From positions 223,208 through 287,137 of the forward strand of contig PS015024.1 of the NCBI GenBank assembly GCA_048213135.1: a stretch of DNA of 63,930 nt, in the 5' to 3' direction. This document shows positions 8,548 through 61,800 of the stretch, piece after piece. Every line of letters starts with the position of its first letter. Positions within the stretch are counted from its first letter, which is position 1. This stretch comes from Reclinomonas americana ATCC 50394 (taxonomy: Eukaryota). The notes under the pieces were generated by a model, which saw only the letters and a list, made by a program, of their open reading frames with translations, did no database searches and had not been told where the DNA came from. The position numbers and the translations under genes are program-made.

Positions 8548-11500
8548 TTATTCCTCGCCGGAGCGAGGCAGTTGGAGTGGTGCCAGTCTAACTGGCACAA
8601 AATGCCTCCCTTCATCCCCAAGCTCACTCGGGTCACTGGAATCGAAAAAGGCGGAGTTTGTGACGCCGGTTGGCGACATGGTTGTGGGCGACAGCGGCTC
8701 CGCGTCCAAGGCCGCTCCATCGATCTCGGCCTCGTCAAGCACACTGGCGACGATTTCGAAATTCACGCCGCGTCGACACCACTCGCGCACGTCAAGGCCG
8801 TCGACTGCCTCGTGCTCGAGGCCGGCAAACTGGCCTTCGTCAATGTTCGACGAGCCGGCAAGCAGGACCACAAACTCGTCAAAGTCTATGCACTGCAAGC
8901 AGCAAAAGGGGAGTTGGTGTCAGCAGTTGCACAGAGAGCGGAAGTGAGAGATTTTAGGCACGGGTGCACGCAACTCCGTCGCCGTCGTCGTCAAACTCTG
9001 TGGTCATGGCCACGAGGTCGGCGTACGACCGCATCTCCCCGACTTCTTCGAGAATGGCACGCAGTTCGTCCTGGTCGATCTTGCCACTGCCGTCGGCATC
9101 GTATGTGTTGAACACCTCGCGCAGCTCTTCCACCGAAGATCCTTGCAGCGATGACACGNNNNNNNNNNNNNNNNNNNNNNNNNNNNNNNNNNNNNNNNNN
9201 NNNNNNNNNNNNNNNNNNNNNNNNNNNNNNNNNNNNNNNNNNNNNNNNNNNNNNNNNNNNNNNNNNNNNNNNNNNNNNNNNNNNNNNNNNNNNNNNNNNN
9301 NNNNNNNNNNNNNNNNNNNNNNNNNNNNNNNNNNNNNNNNNNNNNNNNNNNNNNNNNNNNNNNNNNNNNNNNNNNNNNNNNNNNNNNNNNNNNNNNNNNN
9401 NNNNNNNNNNNNNNNNNNNNNNNNNNNNNNNNNNNNNNNNNNNNNNNNNNNNNNNNNNNNNNNNNATCACACTGCAGAATTCGTTCCAATCGATTTCCTA
9501 GAGAGGTGATAGTGCGTGCGGTAAGTTGCGATGGCGTCGCCACAAGAAAAGAGGAGCTGTGAGGCACTCACCAGATCGCCGTCGTCGTCACACTTGACGA
9601 TAATGTCACGAACTTCGTTTTCTGTCGGCGACTGCCCGAGACAGCGCAGGCAAATGCCCAGCTCCTCCGGCGTCAGCACGTGATTCCCGTCTGCGTCAAA
9701 CACCTCAAATGCCAACTGCATGCATTGGCCCAGTGGGGGCAGTCCGGGCAGTTGAATGGCATTCAGCTCCTCCAGTGGCACCGGATCGTTGATGAGGCGA
9801 TGGCGCACATGAGGTGGCAGCTCGCGCGAGTAGCGAATCAACGTCGGCCGCAGTCGTTGAAGCAGAGAGTAATTCTGCGGCTCTTCCTTTTCGAATTCGA
9901 GGCGTGTACGGAACGCATTGACAGCGGCCTTCATGCGGAGCCACGCCATGTCGTGGATTGCACTCTTCAGTTGCATAGAGCGTTGATGTTGCTCAAGCAG
10001 GCTGTGTGAGGGGTGGTGTGAGTGTAGGTGAACAATGCTGGTGCACAATGTTGGAGAGAACTCAACGTTAGGTACTCTGGACCGAGTGCGTTGCGCGCCA
10101 GCACCACCAGTGTCGACTGGAAGTGGGCCATGTCGAGAGCGAGGCCGACCTCCTTCATGTACTCGCGCAACTCAAAGTTGAACGTCTTTAGTCGAGCGCG
10201 TGTCACCGTAACCGGTTTGACAAGTGGATGGCCGAGCTCGGTGAGATCCTCCAGCACGACTTGCAGCTGGCGCCAGTGCATGCGATTGCGACCGCCGCTG
10301 ATTTCCTGCCACGCGTCTTGGAATCTGCACGATGGCGGTGAGTGCATGCTGCNNNNNNNNNNNNNNNNNNNNNNNNNNNNNNNNNNNNNNNNNNNNNNNN
10401 NNNNNNNNNNNNNNNNNNNNNNNNNNNNNNNNNNNNNNNNNNNNNNNGATTGCTGCTCATATGCAACGCTGCGCAACTTTTGCATATCGTCCTTCGAGAT
10501 TACAAAGGTGGCCTTGCGGTACACGTGCCCGAACTCGTCCAGAATAATCGCCACCACCAGGTTGAGGAACACAAAGGCCAGGAAGGCGTACACAAACACG
10601 AAAAATATGTACACCAGAGCCGGTTGGCCGCAGTAGGGCTCCGCACAAAACGGTTTTTGCACCGCAAGGTCGCGCATGACGCACTGCCAGTTGTCGGCTG
10701 AGAAGGGAGGTACGAGTCACAAGGGCGGTAAAAGAAGTGCACAGCGGTTATAGACACAAAAGACGAACCTGTTGTCACCCGCATGACCGTCAAGAAGGCG
10801 GGCACGAAGGAGCGGAAGTTGGCCTGTCGGTTGAGGCAGCTGCCGAAGCGTACGGTGCCGAACTGTTGCACGCCGAGTGTCGCGAAAATCACCACAAAGA
10901 TGAAGAAGACAAATGTGGTGTTGATCAGTCGCGGCAGCGCGGAACTGTACGACAGTTCGAGGGTTAGACGCAGATATAACACGGCGTTCTCGTCGAGCAG
11001 TCAGGGAGCACGCAACATCAAGGTCTCGAAGATGAGCCGCGTCGGCCGATAAATGTGCACGAGACGCAGAATTCGCAAGATGCGCGAAATGTCTTGAATG
11101 GCGTACCCCACCGACGCCACCTCAGACACACTGCTGAATGTCATGAACCAGCCGAGCCAGGAGCCGACAATGATGGAAAAGTCAAACACATGCCATCCCG
11201 ATTGCATGAAATATCCGCTGTGTGCAGATAGGCAGACGCATCCTGTCAGTCTCGCGCAGCAACTCTAAAGCACGCACAAATTCAATAAGAAAACGCACCC
11301 CGGTAGATAGGCTGTCATGCGAATCACGGCTTCGACAGTGAACACGGCGAGGAACATGAAGTTTCCGATGTTGATGGCATCCGAGACAGCCTGCGACTGA
11401 CCAAAGTGGCGCACTGCCAACAGGGCGGTGTTGCCGACCACACAAAAGAGGATGGCACTGCATCGCGCACAATATTATCGAATACTGTCTTTCTTGTGAA

Positions 11501-14500
11501 GAGGCAAGAAGAGCAACAAGAGAGACGCAACGGCTCAAACCACTTGCTTTCGCAGCAAGCCAATGCCAGTTTACGGACGCGGCTGCGCGCTTCGCGTGCC
11601 GTTGGTGGCAAGGCCTGGAGCAGAATGCCACGTCGAATGTCGCGCCACGCACGCTGCGTATCGGTGAGATACGCAGTGCCCACTTGCATTTGCATGTTCT
11701 GGACCACGATGGCGATGAAGATGTTGACCAGGAAAAAGTTGGCGGTGAGCACGAAAGCCACAAAGAACACCGAGTAGTAGGGGGCGCTGTTGGTGACCGG
11801 TGCCTGGCCTTGGCCTGTCATGCTGGTCGTGGCCCACAAGACCGGTGTCCAGTTGCTGAGAGTGGATGACTCGAACAGAACCAGCAGCGAATTGGCGGTG
11901 TTGTCGAAATTGTAGTATGGTGTTTTCCACGTGCGCGGAGCCACCACTCCTAGCGAGTTGGTGTAGTAGCCGAAACAACTGGTCTGATTGAGTGCACTAT
12001 CGCTGCATCGGTACAGACCGCCAGCGAACAAGTTGACGCCAAACAGGGCAAACAGGAGGTAGATGAACAAGCCGACAATGGCGACGTTGAGTAGCTGACT
12101 CGAGGCCTTGCCGAGAGATTCGAGCACAACTTGTGCGCCTGGGAGGAGAGAGACAATTGATGGGAAGGGAGTGACGGCGACGTGATGCAGAGAGCAAAAC
12201 GCACCTCGATTCCGTTTGAAGAGACGGAGTACTTTCAAGCAGCGAAGCGCGTCGAAACCGGCAATGTGCAGCAATTCACCGTACAGTTCGATGAGCAGCA
12301 GCAGATCCAGCCAGTTCCACTTGCTACGCAGATAGCCGTCGGGGCTGAAGAGGACGCCGTGTGCCACTGTCTTCAGCACAAAGTCCAACGAGAACACTAC
12401 CGCCAGCACGCAGTTGGTGATGTTGAGTGCACGCAACACATCCGACGAGTTGTCGTCATCAGCGCGATTCAGAATCAGGAATGCCAGCGTCACCAATGTG
12501 GCCAGCAACACTGTCCAGTTCCACACCGTGGATTCCACCCACACATGAGCGATTTTGCGGACGGTGTTGTTGGGCCCGAGCCAGCCGAACGAATAATCGG
12601 GGAATTGGTTGTCTGCAAGCAAGTGCTGTGCGTGAGCCATCACCCGATACACAGCTATCTTCCATAGCAGTGACGCAACTCAAGATCGACTTGTACCGAT
12701 CAGTCTCGCCCAGACCATTCAGCCTCGTCACCTTGGTCATGCTGCAGTGATCGATGATCAGACAACATTTCTGGCATGGCGGTGCACACGACAGTAAGGG
12801 CGGTTCCTCACCTGCTCATCTTGTCGTCCTTCTTAGGCGCTTTTTCCGGATCCACATCGTCAACTGCTTCCTCTTCTGCCTGCTGAACGACGAAGCCGCA
12901 GCCAATCAACAGACTGCGACCGCACGTCCGCTTCGTCGGTTGCTTCATCTTGCGAGCGCGAACAGTAGTCTTTTCCCATCGTGAGGCATCGTAGTACATC
13001 TTGCAGCGGCGCTCGTACTCCTCTGGGGTCTGTCCCAGTGGTCCGCTGTCTTCCGAACCTATCAGCAAGCCACAGTGCTTGTGAGTTGTCTTCTCTTACA
13101 GAACACAGGCTGACTTTGCAACATGTATCCGCAACTCGACGAAGAGGAATAACCGTCATCGTCGTCCTCTGCCTCGCCCTTCTCGGACGGAATCGCAGCC
13201 GATTGAACAGATGCCGCCGACACCAGAAGCGTCGGTTTGTTGGCTGCCGACACGAACAAACTGTCGGTTCGTGACTTGCCAAACTGCGCAATGTTGCTCG
13301 TGCTGTCGGCCATGCTTCCGACAGCCGGCAGCACCTTGCCACGTGTGCTCTGCTTGGACGAAGGTCGTGAGCTCTGCTTCGATGACGGCCGTCCACTCCT
13401 CCGCGCCGTGTGCTCCTCTCGCGGCTGGCAAAACATGATGCGGAACAGTCGTCGTAGCGCCATGTAGAGGCGGAACAGGGTGGTGATAGGCAACTGTGCA
13501 ATGTTCACACGCACACCCAAATCAGTCAACGTGGATCACCAAAGAGGAGTACGGGGGGGAATGCGAAACCTTTCTCTTGCCGCTTGCCTCGACATCCATC
13601 ACCTCCTGCTGCTGCATGCGCTGCTTGGTGTCTTGGTCGACATCGAATGCCTCGACGATAATGGCCAAGAACAGGTTAATGACGATGACTGGTGAGAGAA
13701 AGCACAAAGTAGTGTGAGCCTGCTTGTGGATTCCACCCTTCCAAAATCATCACAGCATACGCAACACTTGGCAAAGAGGATGTAGCACACAAAGTAGAGA
13801 ACGGTCGACAATAGGCGTTCGCTCATCAATGGGTAAATGAGATATGGCCAGCCGTCCGCCGACATTAGCTGTAACGGAAGAGTCAACATGTGTGTGTGTG
13901 AGAGAGAGATGACGGGTGACCATAGGCTACTCGTCAAGACTGAAACACAGACCTCGAATGCAACAATCAAGGCCTCCCAAAAGGTAGTAAACTGCCCGTA
14001 CGATGTCGGAATGACCAAGTCGCCGAACAACTGCATGCCAATGATGCCGAACACGATCAACACAAAGGCGATGAAGATGAACACGTTGAGGATGCCTTCG
14101 ATCGAGTTACTGAGCTTGCTCTGTTGAGTGACGCAACACAGAACAGTGCAGGTGTAAGCAAGACAGATAAACAGTATGCGTCTGAGTTTGTATGACACGC
14201 CACGCACAATCAGTTCTCGTGGTCCCTTGAGACGCCGGAACAGTTTGAACAGGCGGAGCAAACGGAACGAGCGCAGCAGACTGAGATTCGACGAGGCCAG
14301 TACGACGCTGATTACCGAAGCAACCACCACCACGAAATCAAACTGGAATCGCCCTGGATGCCACACATCTAGCAGTTAGTCGCACTGACATTATGAAGGA
14401 AAGGAACGAGCACGAATGCCGCACCCCAGCGGAAGTACTCGAGCGGGTTGCCGAGTGCGCACATGATGAGAACCATCTCCAGCGCAAACACGCAGGTGAA

Positions 14501-34700: not shown

Positions 34701-35601
34701 CGGCGGTCGCCCCTGCCCCGACTCGTACTTGCTGGAGACCGGCCGTTGCGCAGCGCTGAGCAGTCCCTGCGAGACAGCCGCAGTGCGCTGCTGCTCTGAC
34801 ATGTTCACCCAATCATCCGTAAACGCGCGCAGATCCGCATACCCACGCAGTGCCGTCGCCGCCACTCGTGGATTGTCGCACTCGAACTCGGCCAGCACAC
34901 GATTACTGGCCGACATGAGCACCACCAGCCCACGATCCACATCCTGCATCACTTGCGTCGAGCTGCTGAGCGGATACTGCACGGAAATCGTCGGCGGAAT
35001 GTCGGCCACATCCACGCCGCTTTGGATCTGTACGAGAGGGTGAACGAGTGAGAGGGACAGAGAGAGCAGAGGAAGATGAAGAAGAAGAAGAACAAGAGAG
35101 GGAGAGAGGGAGAGAGAGAATGAGGAGCTCACCAGCTTGTTGCTCTCCGTGGCCGTGACGGCCCTCTCAAACGCCACCTCCTTGGCATTGACCGTCATGA
35201 ATGCCGGCACGTACGATCCATCATCCATTTCGTCGAGCGTCGGCAGCGGTGTGCGTGCGGCCTCGTTGACTCCCTGCTGTGCCTCGTGCTGCCGCCGGAA
35301 GAGCGCACGTTGCATGCGACCGTGCACATCGACCAGTTGCACGCGCATCGAGAACTGCCCTTCTTCCATTAGCTGGCGCAGCATTGAGTGTTCGTACGGG
35401 AGAAGAAGCTGAGCGCCGGCCGCTGTGTGTGTGTGTGTGTGTGTATTGAGTGAAGAGTCCGGTAAGTTGAACGTTGGACATTGATATGTGCTTGACACGC
35501 AAGAGAAGACATACTCGTGCGCGCGCTCTGTTCTCTCACTTACCAGTGGCACTGGGTGCCAGAGCAGGCAGCTGCGGTGAAGGCGACACGGGAGTCGCCA
35601 T
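25779..35601 (-). CDS. Giant low-complexity protein with a small N-terminal globular region and K/E/A/G-rich tandem repeats; includes the mis-oriented contig 33625-34639
   Basis: Start MATPVSPS at 35601, with exons joinable by GT-AG introns. Flipping 33625-34639 gives in-frame joins at both ends. Long ORFs at 32058-33604 and 27999-32170 continue by splicing (VDK|GTATTG) to an acidic tail ending at 25779. Confidence 0.6.
28150..29450 (-). repeat. Coding tandem repeat, 219 bp (73 aa) unit, about 6 copies
   Basis: The anchor tcgtcacccgactcctccgc recurs about every 219 bp (~28291, 28510, 28729, 28948, 29168). Unit KKGAAAEESGDEAAAGEASPKSGKKGKKTKAAAKEGEEEEAGATDREDGAETEGEAEESKTPTGKGKKGGKAK. Confidence 0.9.
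29460..30930 (-). repeat. Coding tandem repeat, ~180 bp (~60 aa) unit, spanning a gap
   Basis: Unit KKKGAAAEESGDEAAEALASPRSGKKGKKTKDAAVEEAAPPTPVAAEAEEGGKKSSKS appears three times right of the gap and once left of it. The gap probably holds more copies. Confidence 0.85.
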
Positions 35602-35944
35602 ATGTGTGTGTTTTTCGGGTGTGACAGATACGTTTTTGCGAGCACCACCAACGTCTGTCCCCTCAGCCGCAGTCTCGCTGATCGAGTCTGGAGTGGACAA
35701 CAAGCGGTACAGCTACGTGGTGTTGTGCCAGGAGCCGGCAAGCTGTCACGTCACTCCGGCGACGTGGAAACCAATCGACGTCGACGTTGTTCGACGTTGC
35801 CGCAAAACAACCGATCACCGTCTTGCAACCGACGTGCGCAGTAGGAGACAGAGAGAATGCACTACCGCAATGCCGCGCGACAAGAGACACGTGCTCCGCG
35901 AACCGTGGGACTCGTGTGTCCTGTTACTTTCTTTTCTTGCGACA

Positions 35945-38900
35945 ATGCAACGCCGGCAGCAGAAGCGACAAAAGCGGCCTCGCGTGGAAGAGGTCATTGA
36001 TGAAGAGCCTGCGGTTGCAGTCGTAGAAGAGGAGGAGCAAGCCGATGCCAATCACTGGCACGGTGGTGGCGACTTGCCTTGGGACGACGAGGATGACGAG
36101 GAGGAGGAGGATGGCGACTTTGAGGACGATGAGGATGATGATGACGACGACGATGCATTCAGCGACGATGTTGTCGAAGAAGAGGACGATCTGGATGCGT
36201 TGATTGAGGCGGCGGCTGCACGAGGTCCGCCATGCATGTGCACATTCACACACTTTTTTTCTTTGCGCCCCCCCACTTCATTCACACAATCCACTGTTGC
36301 TTGTGCAGCACCGGCGCGGACCGATGCCCGTGATGAGAAGCGTGTGCGTCCGGCCGAGGACGATGAGGACTCGTCGGATGATGAGACGCTGACGAATACG
36401 ATTGGCAATGTGCCGCTGGAGTGGTACGATGATTACGATCATGTGGGGTATGACGTGGCGGGCGAGCGGATTGGCAAGTCGGCCTCGAAGAAGATGGATT
36501 TGGTCGATCGGCTGCTTCGCATGCAAGATGATCCGGACTACATGTTGCGTTTTTTTCTTCCATTTGCGAACAAGAGACGAGTGTTGACTCTCTATGCATA
36601 GTCGAACTGTGTACGATGCACTGCATGATCAGGAGCATGTGTTGACGCACGAGGAGCTGGAGACGATTCTGCGCATTCGGCGTGGCCAGTTTGCGGAAAA
36701 GTCGGTCGCCACCGAGATTGTTGCGTCGCTTTTGTGCACTCTCATCAGTGTTGCATGCATGTTTTTCTCACCTCTTGCTCGCTGCAGCCTCTGTATGGCA
36801 CCGGAGAGAAAGAGTTGCATCCGCTGCGCAATGCACCGCTCAAGAAGAGCCGCTTCATCCCGTCCAAGAACGAAGGCAAGATTGTGGCGCACTACCGCAA
36901 GCTGATCCGCGAAGGCAAGATCCCGCCGTTTGAGCCCAAGCTGGATCCGGAGGCACTGGAGCAGTTGCCGACGCCTCACGATTTGTGGGGCCGTGGCTCC
37001 GACGCCAAGCTGCCGTCGTACCACGTGCCGCCGCCGAAGCTGCCGCTGCCGGGTCACGCCGAGTCGTACAATCCTCCTGCCGAGTACCTGCTGACACCCG
37101 AGGAGGAGGAAGTGTGGCGCAATCGCGATNNNNNNNNNNNNNNNNNNNNNNNNNNNNNNNNNNNNNNNNNNNNNNNNNNNNNNNNNNNNNNNNNNNNNNN
37201 NNNNNNNNNNNNNNNNNNNNNNNNNNNNNNNNNNNNNNNNNNNNNNNNNNNNNNNNNNNNNNNNNNNNNNNNNNNNNNNNNNNNNNNNNNNNNNNNNNNN
37301 NNNNNNNNNNNNNNNNNNNNNNNNNNNNNNNNNNNNNNNNNNNNNNNNNNNNNNNNNNNNNNNNNNNNNNNNNNNNNNNNNNNNNNNNNNNNNNNNNNNN
37401 NNNNNNNNNNNNNNNNNNNNNNNNNNNNNNNNNNNNNNNNNNNNNNNNNNNNNNNNNNNNNNNNNNNNNNNNNNNNNNNNNNNNNNGCAAATGAGTCTCT
37501 TCTCCATGCGGTTGTGTCACAAAAGACCAGAAATCAGAAACGCACCCGACGCCAAGTACTGTCCATTGGGCGACACAGCCAGAGCGCGCACCATGCCAGT
37601 GTGTCCTTTGAATCTAACGCTCAGCTTGGTGGGGAACGGCTTCAGCTCGTTAACGTCAGGCAGCTCCGGGAAGAGCTGCTTGAACGGCGTGTAGGTGCGC
37701 GTCTTTTGCACACGCGGGCACAGGTACAAATCGAGGCACCGCTCAAATCGCTCCTTGACAAGGTTCCTGTAGGACGGCAGCAGACGCAGGGAGGTGTGCT
37801 TGCGCGGCAAGAAGTTGGTCTGCCTCTTGCTGGGNNNNNNNNNNNNNNNNNNNNNNNNNNNNNNNNNNNNNNNNNNNNNNNNNNNNNNNNNNNNNNNNNN
37901 NNNNNNNNNNNNNNNNNNNNNNNNNNNNNNNNNNNNNNNNNNNNNNNNNNNNNNNNNNNNNNNNNNNNNNNNNNNNNNNNNNNNNNNNNNNNNNNNNNNN
38001 NNNNATTCACAGGTGGCGATGATTGCACGCTGCGATTATGGGAGGTGCGCACGGGTCGGTGCTTGCGCATGTGGCGCGCAAAGGACGTGGTGCAGTGTGT
38101 TGAGTTCCATCCGCTGGCCACTGTTCCGCTGTTGGTGGCTGGTGTCGACACGGGTGAGTGGTAGCCGATGACTGTTTGTGTGTGTGTCCGGGAGGTGCGA
38201 TGATGGCTCACGCTTTCGCGGTGCAGATCTCGTCTTCTTTGACAGCAAGATCGGCAATGCCGACTGCCGTGAACGCGTGCTCTCTGTGGCCCGTGCGGCG
38301 CGACAGGAGATTCCGACCGGCCAGCGACCGGTGGCAGAGTGGATTTCGCACCTGGACGGGTCGGTGGCGCCAGAGGCTGCCGCCGAGGGCCCGAGCGACG
38401 GACAACGTAACCAGTGGCGTGAATTGGAACCACTGTTCACCATTCGCCACGAGTTCAAGCTTCGCCAAGTCACCTTCCATCACAAGGGCGACTACCTCGC
38501 CGCTGTGTGCCCCGACGCCAACACTCGCGGTGTGGTGATTCATCACCTCGGCAAGCGCCAGAGCCAGTGCCCATTCAAGAAGACCAAGGGCCAAGTGCAG
38601 GTGAGCACACGCGCCCACATAACATGCATATCGTATCGTTGCTGATCACCCTCTCTCTTTCTCTGTCTCTTGCACACTCGCAGCAAGTTGCCTTCCACCC
38701 CACCGAGCCACGCTTCTTTGTGGCCACGCAAAAGTTTGTGCGTATCTACGACCTGGTCAAGCAGGAGTTGGTGAAGCGACTGCAGCCGGGCGTGCGCTAC
38801 ATTTCCAGGTTTCGTCCCCGTGATTTGCCACCAGCTACTGTCGGTGGGCTGTTAATCCTCACCTGGGTGCGTGTGTGTGTGCATGCAGTCTGGATGTGCA

Positions 38901-39450: not shown

Positions 39451-50449
<10,999 letters not shown>

Positions 50450-56471: not shown

Positions 56472-57794
56472 TTACTTGAGTTTGGCTGCATTTTTGTCGT
56501 GCTCGGGTGTTGGTGAGTGTTGCCGTGTGGTCGACGAGACCAACGGGGTGGTGTCCGAGTTGGCACCCGCTGCATCGTCGGCGGAGGGTGTCATCGAGGC
56601 CAGATGGCCGCGATAGTAGCCCGGCGGGAAGTGTGGAACGTGATCCGACGCTTGGCGCACAGGGAAGAAGCAGCCGTCACCTGGCAGGTCGGAGTTGGTT
56701 CCAGGCCACCACCACCACCACGGGTTCTCGCCGAGCGCTCCGCGCAGATTGTGCAGGTAGCCGACGTGGTAGGGATTGGCAGTCTGTTGGGGCGAGAGGC
56801 GTGAGGCGAGAGACACCCTTGACATACAGAGATGGAGAGAGTGGGCAGGCACGCAACCAGGTGGTAGCGTTGTCGCAGCTTGGTCCTCCAGCCCTTGTCC
56901 ATCGACTCGATGGTGGTGATGTTGCGGAAGAGCAGTGAGAAGTGGTAGCCCCCAAAGCCGCCCAGGGTCAGCGCAAAAATAATGGCGATGAAGAAGGCCA
57001 GCACCACATTCACAATCGACAGTGGTTCCAGTGGTTCCGGGAACGGTTGCTGCGCGGCGGGAACGAGCGCGTGTGAGGACGAGCTGGTGGACTCGCTCAG
57101 AGAGAGACACACACAGACAGACAGACCCCTGGTGCTGGTGGCGTAAACACGGCATACTCCAGCGAAATGGCATACAAAAAATCGCGGAACAGCGTCGCCG
57201 CAATGTAGGCACCGAGCAGCGCCGAGTACATCAGGAACTGGAAGAAGAACTTGGTGTTGTAGAAACCGACACAGTTGTTCACCCACGCTGCGTCGTATAA
57301 CGAGATCGATGAGAGTGCTGCTCACTGGCGACGGCGGCGGCGGCGGCTGCTGAGAGAAGCGCACGCAACGACAGTGGTGATCCATCTTGAGCACACATCG
57401 CTCGCACGAGCTGCAGTGATGCGCGCGATCGGGCTTCGGCACAGATCGCACCAGGGGCCGCTCCAAATCCCGCCCACTCTCATCCTTGTGCAGCACGATC
57501 GGATGGCACTTGGAGCACACACGATGTGCGCCATCAAAACGCCGCTCGATTTGCGACATCTGCCGCCGGCCTGGTCAACACAACACAACGATCATTCATC
57601 ATCAGAGCACATCAACTCACCACCACACGCTCCTGTCCCGTGGACGACGACGATGATGACGACTCCTCCACCGTCTTGGCGTTCACCGGTTGCACTGGCG
57701 GCGGCGGCGTTCCGTGCGATCCAGCATGCGATGGGCTTGCGAGAGGTGAGCAGATCGTCGACACAGGCATCGCACAGCACGCATGCATGTAATC
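56472..57794 (-). CDS. DHHC palmitoyltransferase, 5' TM exons missing at the gap
   Basis: CSKC...[43 protein letters not shown] helices, NITTIE and [16 protein letters not shown]. Confidence 0.95.
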
Positions 57795-57818
57795 NNNNNN
57801 NNNNNNNNNNNNNNAAAA

Positions 57819-58518
57819 TCACGATTGTGGTGCCTGTGGTGGCGATTGTGCCGCTGGCGACGAAGGCACAGTGGCGGTGGCCGTGAGCCGCGTCGTCTGA
57901 TTGCTGGAGCTGTCGAGGGCGACTTGCACCTCAAACACATCAACGTCCTTCTCCCGGCGCACTGTGCGGCACATCGGACGCAGAAGGAGGAGGAGGAGGC
58001 GAAGGGGAACAAGGAACAGGATGCGACGGAGTACACACAGGCACAGACAAGCAGACAGACGACCAACGAGCTAGCTCGCGTTGGTGAGGCAAGAACAACA
58101 CGTGCATGCAATGAAGAGCGCACAACGAGCGACTCACCCGAGATCACCATGTCATCCGAGCGGATCGGCACGTATCGCTACACACAGCAAAACACTCAGC
58201 GGAAGAAGAACGCGTGAACAAGATAGAGATGTAACGCAACAGACACCACTCGCAACAAGTCCGACTGCAACGATTGCACATCAACACCCTCCAGCACAGA
58301 CGCTGGAGACAACCCCGCATGAGCACACTCAGCCTACTTGCCTGTGCCTCCCTTTCCGTCTCACCTCCTCTCTGTTGTGATAATATGATATGAAGTCTCT
58401 CCTTGGCCACTCGCCCACTGCCACTCCTCGCGGCGGCCGAGGCTGCTGCTGAGGCCGCTGCTGCAGCTGGTCCATTGAACGCACCTCCGAACAACCTTGC
58501 CACCAAGTCTCTCACCAT
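57819..58518 (-). CDS. minE: Nuclear-encoded cell-division topological specificity factor MinE (probably mitochondrial), 4 exons
   Basis: Exons 58518-58365, 58302-58241, 58177-58138 and 57961-57819 splice via GT-AG to MVRDLVARLFGG...SGRVAKERLHIILSQQRGASVLEGVDVQSLQSDLLRVVSRYVPIRSDDMVISVRREKDVDVFEVQVAL.... This matches the MinE pattern AKERL.II...R / LQ.DLL.V..Y / .LE.NV.L. Confidence 0.88.
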
Positions 58519-58845
58519 CTACATCCCAAGGAAATGATAAGAAGGGGNNNNNNNNNNNNNNNNNNNNAACTCGTCTCCCTCGTCTTTTTGTTGTTCTTTA
58601 TCGCCCACACATGCGTTTGTGTTTTTATGAAAGGCGCGGTGTGTGTTGTGTTGTGTTGCACTTGAGAGGATTATTTCACTTAACCACCTCACACGCACAC
58701 ATCGACTCAAGGCATGCCACCCACCCACCCACCAACCCCCTTCCCAACGACCAGCAAAACATCCGACATGCATGAAAGCAGAAAAAATAATGGAGAGCAG
58801 AAGAAGCAACGGACTGAGAAAGCAGCGCAACGGCATCACGCCGCG

Positions 58846-61800
58846 CTATCCGGTCGACGTCCACCGTGTGGAGCTCGGACTTCTTGGTGAGTTGGCGCGG
58901 CTGCGCAGCGACGACTCCCACATCAGCGTCTGCTGGTTGACTCCGGGTGCCGCCAGATGGCGGTACTCGTGGAACTCGGCAGGGTATCTGTACAACTGGT
59001 AAGACTCTCGCGGAGGATGCATACGGCGCGTGATCCGAGTCGGGACGCAACGCTTGTGGTGGTGGATTCATGAACCGCTCCAGCGATCGGTGTCGGGAGG
59101 ACGACGAGCGCAGCGTGGGGCTGGCACTGCGCAGGCTGCGACGGTTCGGACTCGAGTTGCGCTGTGGTCTGTAAAATACAAGGTTGGCCGCAGTACACAA
59201 TGAAATGAAAGGCCAACAGAGCACACGACGCAACGACGTCTTGCGACCCTGTGCGCCCAACTGACTAAAGTGCAAGCTGCGCGCCAGATCCTCCTGCGAT
59301 CGCTCCAACGCCTGCAACGCCATGGCTCGCCCGTCTGCCTGCTCGCCTTCTTCAGCAAACGCCGCGGCCGCCGCTCCACCGAGAAGATCGCTGCTCCGCT
59401 CGTTGACCGACTGTGGCGGTGGTACCTCACGCAACAGCTCCGTTTGCAGCGGACTGGTCGGCGACGCCTGCGAGTAGTCCGCTCCGTACAACTGGCGCAG
59501 GGCCTGCACGTCCTTTTGCAGCGACGACGCCAGTTCCCGTGACGATGAACCGCGCGCCTCCTCGCTGCTCGGTTGTGGCGTTGAGATCTTGGTCACATCA
59601 GGTGTGCTCTGCACGCACACACACATGTCAGCAAGAGAAACGCATGCAGTCAGAGTTCGCAGAATCAGACGCAACAGGTGCCTGGCGACGGCTGGCCGCA
59701 GGCGACGATGACGACGACGACGCCGGTACGGGTTGATGGAAGACCGCACTTAACCGGTTGGCCACGCTGTAGGGCGAGCTCGTGCTCCGTGCTGGCGGCG
59801 TCTGTCGTGACTATGCATACAAAGAACATGCATGAATACTCGCGAACGAAAAATCTTCGCAGGCGGGGGCACGAGCGCACCGATCGACCCACGCGACGAG
59901 ACGATGTCCGCCGAGAGCCGTCTCGCCGTGGTGATGCATCGGCCGATGTGGGCTGGCTGTGGCCGGCCGACACTGGCGCAGAAGCAGACACACCGCGCGG
60001 TGCGAACTTGCGACGTGGGCTGTTGACACGACATGAGTGACGACCATTATCATCCAGTGCACTCGCCACAAGCACAACTCACCGGAAGCGAGGATTGCTG
60101 GAGCCAATGAATCGCGCCGATGACAACAAGTACTGATAGGCCTCTTGCAGCAGTTCTGGTGGTACCACGCCACTCTTGGCCACAAAGTCTGTGCGTCGCC
60201 GCGAGTGAGCATCATTCCTCCTTTTTCCCTCTTGCGCTCGTCCTCACCCATCAGATAATCAGCAGCCATCAGCGGGAATCTCACGTGCGGCAACACGGGT
60301 GCCATGGCGGTGGCGAGCGTCGGCACGGCGACCGGGTGCTCACTGCCGCGCGAGGGCGTCGGATCTGCAGCAGTGAATCACGAGAGTAAGTCTCGTTGTC
60401 GAGTGTCGCTGGCGCATGACAGCCGCGCACACCTGCATCACTGCTGCTGCCAATCGAGTGCACCACAATCTCCGGCACATTCGGGTCCTGGTTGTGTGGA
60501 ACCCGACTGCGGCTCCACAGCAGCACAGCCTCAAACACAGCCTCCTGCAACACACAAATCGTCATCGTCAGCGTCGCTGGCGGCAACAGGCAGCGAGACA
60601 CGCGGGGCATGAGGACCTCGGCTGACACATTCAAATCATCCGACGCCAACAGCTCCACCAGCAGCTCCGGCTGCAACTCGGGGAACGTAATCGTCTGCGA
60701 CATGGGCTCGAACTGCTGCAGCGCTTCGCGATGGCACATCTCAAACAACAGATCGCACTCGGCCGTCGCCGCCGCATTGAACAGCACCGGCAGATTCTCT
60801 GCCGTGATCTGCGTCGTCAGGAACTTGGCAATCTCATCAAACAGCGTGTACAGCGACAGCTCCCGCGCCGCAATCAGAATCTGCATGGGCGCACATGAGA
60901 GAGGCAATCAATGACTGGAACAGAGCGAGACAACAACAACCGTGTCGCACCTCGCAGGCCGTGATAATGTCTCGCAGGTGCACAGTGTCAGTGTACAAGT
61001 ACCGCAAGACGATCTCAAACGTCGCCGGTGAGCATGTGGTATGCGGTGTGATAATGGGCGCTTTGGAGGTCTGCAAAACACACAAGAAATGCATCAATGA
61101 ACAATGCATTCTCAAAGGTTGCATTTGCACGGTACCTCGTAACCGCTTCCAACGGCGGCAATCAGGGAGCGCAGATAGGGCGATCGAGCACACAAGACAA
61201 CCTGCAAGAGAGAGTGTGTGCGAGAGTGTGTGTCAGGACATGACACGCACACACACACAGGCGCACATGCAGATGCATGCGACTGCATCTTGCTCTTCCT
61301 TGCTCATACACAGACACAGGCAGCTGACCACAGAGAGAAGCATGCGCGTGTGCGCCAGTGCAAGTGACAACAGTGGCCATGACGACATGCCTCTCTCCCT
61401 CCCTCGTTCTCACGTGCTTCTCTGCCTGCACACTCTCTCACACTCTCTCTCCCTCAACGCACCTTGTGCGCTGGGAACGATCGATCGGCGACCACCACAG
61501 ACAGATCGGCGAGGTCTTCAGAGAGCGCATAGGCGGCCAGGTCCTCTCCCAGTGTGGTTCGTCGAGGCACAGACGATGCCGAGGGTGGTGCTGCTGCTGC
61601 TGATGATGATGAGGAAGAGGACGACGAGGGCAAAGAGAACGCCTGTTGCTGCTGTTGGGGTGATGCATGTGCTGGCGATGCAGCAGACATGCTGTGTGAT
61701 GCAGACGAGGAGGAGGTCACCAGTGGCGACGATGACGCTCCTGCTGTGCTCATTCCTGCTGTATCGATATGAGTGTGGGAGGCAGGACGCATGCGATTCA

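Follow-up and report, generated by a model that had tools for sequence, protein, structure and literature searches.

Plastid MinE proteins, such as Arabidopsis MinE1, are of cyanobacterial descent and carry a long N-terminal transit peptide. Like the protein described here, the plastid proteins of plants and algae are encoded in the nucleus, act in an organelle and extend past the core shared with bacterial MinE. They differ from it in their cyanobacterial origin and long transit peptide, whereas Reclinomonas americana is a jakobid and jakobids are not known to have a plastid. The jakobid Andalucia godoyi also encodes a MinE, which was reportedly first described by Leger et al. 2015.

The bacterial proteins make up the Pfam family PF03776, and the Escherichia coli member is 88 aa long. 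Passages in PMC6803595 assign E. coli residues 2-12 to a membrane-targeting sequence, residues 13-31 to the MinD contact helix and residues 32-88 to the dimerisation domain. In their account, binding of MinE to membrane-bound MinD displaces MinC and sets off ATP hydrolysis. As for mitochondria, sections of PMC7050145 present FtsZ-MinCDE of A. godoyi as an ancestral mitochondrial division system. The relevant parts of PMC7050145, PMC4989108 and PMC12699882, all of which cite Leger et al. 2015, attribute FtsZ together with MinC, MinD and MinE to jakobids, and within this group of papers FtsZ-MinCDE is stated for the jakobid Stygiella as well. Supplement file 1 of Gray et al. 2020 (PMC7050145) lists A. 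godoyi MinE (AKB90673.1, 145 aa, no introns) in the mitochondrial proteome. The supplement gives it a targeting metric of 57, in the medium class, the metric being the mean of four mitochondrial-targeting predictors multiplied by 100.

Mitochondrial MinCDE in jakobids is already in print, and the Reclinomonas locus described below leaves this known picture unchanged. Our literature search, which covered open papers other than Leger et al. 2015, returned none that reports Reclinomonas Min genes. The locus makes modest additions to what is known: the gene is interrupted by three introns, in contrast to the intronless Andalucia gene, and it points to a leader and a tail that are common to the two jakobid proteins and absent from bacterial MinE. 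As we argue below, it is very probably a nuclear gene for the mitochondrial MinE of this jakobid, orthologous to that of A. godoyi.

The analysed window, a stretch of 63,930 nucleotides from a heavily gapped draft scaffold, includes 17 N runs, of which nine measure exactly 20 and the others 95-925. Its open frames match DHHC, Armadillo, ion-transport and BOP1 domains in Pfam, all indicative of eukaryotic genes. From these domain matches of the neighbouring frames it follows that the window is eukaryotic nuclear DNA. Three of the matching frames lie at the following positions:

11324-12679, minus strand: open frame with an ion-transport domain (E 4.6e-39)
35471-36601, plus strand: open frame with a Pfam match to the BOP1 N-terminal domain
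46285-47124, minus strand: open frame with a Pfam match to Armadillo repeats

Near one end of the window, script-based splicing of four minus-strand exons with GT..AG borders yielded a 399-nt frame that encodes 132 residues and has no internal stop. The locus, read in the direction of transcription, is composed as follows:

58548-58567, no strand: assembly gap of 20 N, 30 nt upstream of the start codon
58519-58547, minus strand: pre-start segment of 29 nt between gap and ATG, pyrimidine-rich (20 of 29 by our own count) and ending in AG
58365-58518, minus strand: exon 1, 154 nt, with the ATG at 58518-58516 and a phase-1 end; encodes the 37-residue leader (amphipathic residues 2-12 and an Ala-rich stretch), then the MinD contact-helix motif A-K-E-R-L-H-I-I-L
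58303-58364, minus strand: intron 1, 62 nt, GTGAGA...CCAG
58241-58302, minus strand: exon 2, 62 nt; encodes the linker and the first part of the dimerisation (topological specificity) domain
58178-58240, minus strand: intron 2, 63 nt; unusual donor GTTGCG, acceptor TGTAG
58138-58177, minus strand: exon 3, 40 nt; encodes R-Y-V-P within the dimerisation domain
57962-58137, minus strand: intron 3, 176 nt, GTGAGT...CACAG
57819-57961, minus strand: exon 4, 143 nt; last beta strands and the 31-residue tail, with the TGA at 57821-57819
57795-57814, no strand: assembly gap of 20 N, 4 nt downstream of the stop codon

The first splice junction interrupts codon 52, the second separates codons 72 and 73, and the third interrupts codon 86. 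The entire coding sequence lies on a single 733-bp piece (57815-58547) flanked by the two 20-N gaps; neither gap interrupts the gene, but they cut off its 5′ and 3′ untranslated regions. In the stop-to-stop ORF list the gene is represented only by exon 1 read into intron 1 (58144-58518, 124 aa), in agreement with the initial annotation, according to which the ORF track showed just the first part of MinE. We considered this 124-aa read-through ORF as a gene in its own right and rejected it, as its match to MinE is gone after residue 51.

One of the three introns has an uncommon donor. However, the neighbouring minus-strand gene for a DHHC palmitoyltransferase contains an 82-nt intron (57288-57369) that begins with the same GTTGCG hexamer, and excision of that intron restores the motif D-H-H-C-P-W-V-N-N-C. 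Since the same donor is used in the adjacent gene, we do not regard the donor of MinE intron 2 as a weakness of the gene model. Over both strands of the window, GTTGCG occurs 82 times, compared with 67 occurrences of GTGAGT and 7 of GTAAGT.

To score the protein and its parts we used a local HMM built from 85 distinct proteobacterial MinE sequences, gathered from the E. coli protein, eight named plasmid-borne genes (five of them alphaproteobacterial) and 80 genome loci. The latter are the best 80 loci from a scan of genome contigs for MinE, and all are close to E. coli MinE; 79 are gammaproteobacterial and one is filed under a Streptomyces assembly. That one, on a contig of 1037 bp, is of enterobacterial type with 81% identity to E. 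coli and looks like contamination. The presence of MinE is patchy even within Pseudomonadota, where only 42 of 151 evenly drawn genomes gave a match at E <= 0.001.

The spliced Reclinomonas protein scored 52.0 bits against this HMM over positions 11-84 of 87. As chance controls, the best of 1000 shuffled sequences reached 7.8 bits and the reversed sequence 1.3 bits. The score rose exon by exon, from 17.7 bits for the exon 1 read-through ORF to 24.8 bits for exons 1 and 2, then to 38.7 bits with exon 3 (a contribution of 13.9 bits) and to the full 52.0 bits with exon 4 (a contribution of 13.3 bits). Leaving exons out reduced it to 15.0 bits (without exon 2) or 23.8 bits (without exon 3). Retention of introns was likewise unfavorable. 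With intron 1 retained the frame stays open but the MinE match is lost (17.7 vs 24.8 bits), retention of intron 2 gave 39.3 bits with two in-frame stops, and retention of intron 3 gave 37.1 bits. Splicing is needed to restore the alignment with bacterial MinE. The proposal that four small exons rebuild a complete MinE is thus borne out both by the 132-residue frame and by the exon-by-exon rise in score. The further proposal that the introns rule out bacterial contamination also holds, because all three are required for the MinE match; bacterial contamination was rejected on this ground.

The signal is specific to the locus. Among the 1742 open frames (at least 12 aa) that a six-frame scan of the window produced, meaningful scores were confined to the MinE locus, with a single other match at E 5.2. 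Against Pfam PF03776 the exons were compared singly. Exon 1 alone reached 16.7 bits (E 0.0075), short of the 25-bit cut-off, with positions 1-17 of the family aligned to residues 34-50; exons 2 and 4, each taken singly, gave no match to PF03776.

Searches with exon 1 and short motifs against wider databases yielded little. The homologue search of exon 1 among longer proteins returned nothing at E <= 0.01, probably as Ala-rich words crowd the candidate list, and region 31-70 of the read-through ORF produced no candidate with three words in common. In a representative library of 1.84 billion proteins the single match to exon 1 was a low-complexity protein of 2151 aa. Exon 1 had no match among solved structures, no usable match in the ESM Atlas and, by tblastn, no match among plasmids; of its 599 pattern matches in metagenome contigs, none was confirmed. 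The degenerate pattern A-[KR]-E-R-L-H-I-I-L-S-x-[QE]-R had 0 matches in metagenome contigs. A search of longer proteins with E. coli MinE returned 14 matches, 12 of which are at least 68% identical to E. coli MinE, and no eukaryotic MinE. We also came across several MinD-MinE fused ORFs of 342-361 aa in ENA and Logan assemblies. One MinD-MinE fused ORF is filed under the plant Cichorium endivia; it shares 97% identity with E. coli over its aligning part, which makes up 44% of the query, and looks like contamination.

We then asked how the encoded protein compares with bacterial MinE. BLASTP aligned residues 31-101 collinearly with E. coli residues 11-81 at 29% identity over 72 columns with two gap positions, and identity to the best 30 of the 85 proteobacterial proteins was 27-41%. 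Together with the HMM score, this collinear alignment confirms, at the level of sequence, that the initial annotation was right to call the protein MinE. The contact helix is well preserved. Residues A38, K39, R41, L42 and I45 correspond to E. coli A18, K19, R21, L22 and I25, and the A-K-E-R-L-H-I-I-L segment reported earlier is present, with A38-K39-E40-R41-L42 aligned to E. coli A18-K19-E20-R21-L22. Seven columns (M1, A15, A18, R21, L22, L75 and P82) are invariant in nine bacterial MinE proteins. M1, A18, R21 and L22 are kept in the Reclinomonas protein and A15, L75 and P82 are changed, L75 and P82 being replaced by F and D, respectively. Like the contact helix, the dimerisation domain is collinear in sequence with that of bacterial MinE.

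Outside this shared core, the protein departs from bacterial MinE in having about 20 extra residues before the contact helix and a 31-residue tail, and in being encoded by a nuclear gene with introns. The tail looks disordered. A C-terminal extension rich in P and Q had been described earlier; the extension itself is there, but S, T, A, P and Q (7, 5, 5, 5 and 4 residues, respectively) are all abundant in it, rather than simply P and Q.

The closest sequence that we have seen is the MinE of A. godoyi. By hand count rather than by an alignment tool, 33 of 64 residues are identical without a gap, which is well above the 27-41% for the best bacterial sequences. The hand alignment pairs residues 38-101 with Andalucia residues 31-94 and continues unbroken across all three splice junctions. 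This gap-free match checks the exon borders independently. The two proteins also agree in layout. Each opens with an extended leader whose start is amphipathic, continues with the E-R-L-H-I-I-L-S helix and the motifs Y-V-P and D-V-F-E-x-Q-V, and closes with a long low-complexity tail. Taken together, these similarities indicate that the Reclinomonas gene is probably orthologous to that of the Andalucia mitochondrial MinE. The leader preceding A-[KR]-E-R-L is 37 residues long here and 30 in Andalucia, as opposed to 15-20 in the 85 proteobacterial proteins. The Ala-rich run of the Reclinomonas leader is missing from the Andalucia leader, and the tail of 31 residues compares with about 51 in Andalucia, the two tails not being alignable.

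The N-terminal region requires closer attention, since both membrane binding and organellar targeting may reside there. The initial annotation had described an amphipathic N-terminus followed by an Ala-rich linker. The linker is indeed present, with 13 Ala within the first 37 residues. Residues 2-12 are also amphipathic: V2, L5, V6, L9 and F10 occupy one helical face, and the hydrophobic moment of 0.49 lies within the range of 0.05-0.59 for eight bacterial MinE proteins. On the other hand, the helix gave no measurable match to the bacterial membrane-targeting motif, and a membrane-targeting function would be putative. When the N-terminal 12 residues were set next to the core, the score on the local HMM did not increase, and 156 of 200 shuffled N-termini did equally well. 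Moreover, the distance between residues 2-12 and the contact helix exceeds that in bacterial MinE by about 20 residues.

Wholly or partly, the leader may be an import presequence. In the fullest version of this idea, the whole 37-residue leader would be cleaved off, so that the mature protein would start at about the contact helix and lack a membrane-targeting helix, the ancestral bacterial membrane helix having become an import signal or given way to one. The composition of the leader is suggestive: it has a net charge of +3, a single acidic residue (Asp), 13 Ala, 4 Ser and 4 Arg. By eye, an Arg is found at position -2 before A-K-E-R-L here and at -3 in Andalucia, whereas only 5 of the 85 proteobacterial proteins have Arg or Lys at -2 or -3. 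The missing match to the bacterial N-terminal motif points in the same direction. Passages in PMC6803595 report that MinE continues to counteract MinD and to form patterns in vitro after loss of the membrane-targeting sequence. However, they also state that direct membrane binding is needed for a working oscillation in vivo. In addition, residues 2-12 are clearly amphipathic, as expected of a membrane helix, and the comparison involves two jakobid sequences only. On balance, we consider removal of the whole leader rather unlikely, yet a serious possibility. We are somewhat more doubtful about the general proposal that in jakobid mitochondria a cleavable import presequence has been recruited from the bacterial membrane-targeting helix of MinE together with an expanded linker, leaving MinE with no membrane anchor of its own. 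If it were true, mitochondrial MinE would act on MinD via the contact helix alone, and the organelle would house either a simplified version of the Min oscillator or a static gradient of Min proteins.

The preferred reading, a mitochondrial MinE that starts at the ATG of exon 1, also has to be set against the sequence upstream of this codon. An in-frame ATG TAG start-stop pair (58519-58524, minus strand) abuts the main ATG and could be either a minimal upstream ORF or a chance occurrence. The 29-nt segment as a whole may represent 5′ UTR that carries a start-stop element; that it forms the end of an intron is less likely. In the latter case, an upstream exon hidden in the 20-N gap would encode a targeting peptide and be spliced to the AG before the ATG. 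Such an arrangement would fit the 20 pyrimidines among the 29 nt and the terminal TAG, which resembles the three acceptors of the gene, as well as the beginning of the assembly gap 30 nt upstream of the ATG. Nevertheless, the protein of the intronless Andalucia gene and all 85 bacterial MinE proteins start at the corresponding position, the frame of the upstream neighbour ends at about 58676 and leaves about 160 nt plus the gap, and between 58568 and 58676 no plausible coding exon is visible. A hidden exon therefore seems quite improbable, and the ATG start appears better supported, as judged by homology to Andalucia and to the bacterial proteins. The upstream neighbour itself is a 357-aa open frame (58676-59749, minus strand) with no Pfam match, on the same strand as MinE, and the genes are tightly spaced. 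The gap also bears on an earlier argument that the lack of a long transit peptide favors mitochondria: the mitochondrial reading is supported, but, with the gap 30 nt upstream, that particular argument is unsafe from the DNA.

Could the gene be an unexpressed pseudogene, a relic of a Min system that has already been lost? We found no positive evidence in favor of this explanation and consider it very improbable. The frame is intact over four exons, all three junctions keep phase, the match to the Andalucia protein is free of gaps and the contact-helix residues are conserved.

Finally, we addressed the origin of the gene. A maximum-likelihood tree was computed from 43 rows and about 90 columns, after thinning 116 rows to less than 75% identity. 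Besides the Reclinomonas protein, alphaproteobacteria contribute 5 named sequences and gammaproteobacteria 22, and the remaining 15 are unnamed sequences from Pseudomonadota. In this tree, the Reclinomonas protein is on a branch of 6.1 changes per column, has no supported neighbour and falls outside the well-supported alphaproteobacterial group. Given some 90 columns and the lack of cyanobacterial, plastid and other mitochondrial rows, the tree says nothing about the donor. The preference for a mitochondrial over a plastid protein, voiced in the initial annotation, is instead supported by the closest sequence, the MinE from the mitochondrial proteome of A. godoyi. That the gene is of plastid type (cyanobacterial-derived), or comes from a contaminating alga or bacterium, is highly improbable: the tree holds no cyanobacterial or plastid MinE and the 733-bp piece is joined to the scaffold only across gaps, but the need for three introns to restore the protein excludes a bacterium, the GC content of the piece is 0.572 against 0.587 for the window, its rare GTTGCG donor also occurs in the neighbouring gene, and the mitochondrial MinE of a jakobid is the closest among the sequences seen. 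It is this nearest relative, coupled with the plastid-less lineage, that leads us to reject the plastid alternative.

Gene structure and homology were read from the locus itself, and from them and from known MinE proteins we infer import, partners and function as follows. Three spliceosomal introns would be removed to give a 132-residue protein consisting of the leader, the contact helix and the dimerisation domain with its tail. By analogy with known MinE, the positively charged, Ala-rich leader of 37 residues would take the protein into the mitochondrial matrix. There, a MinE dimer would bind membrane-bound MinD-ATP through the contact helix, displace MinC and trigger ATP hydrolysis. As a result, MinCD would be kept off the site at which the mitochondrial FtsZ ring assembles.

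The mitochondrial FtsZ-MinCDE system is a bacterial trait kept by jakobids and therefore bears on the nature of the first mitochondria. The Reclinomonas locus very probably represents a second jakobid MinE gene seen at the genome level. It also raises the question of whether the N-terminal helix of jakobid MinE serves as a membrane anchor, an import signal, or both.
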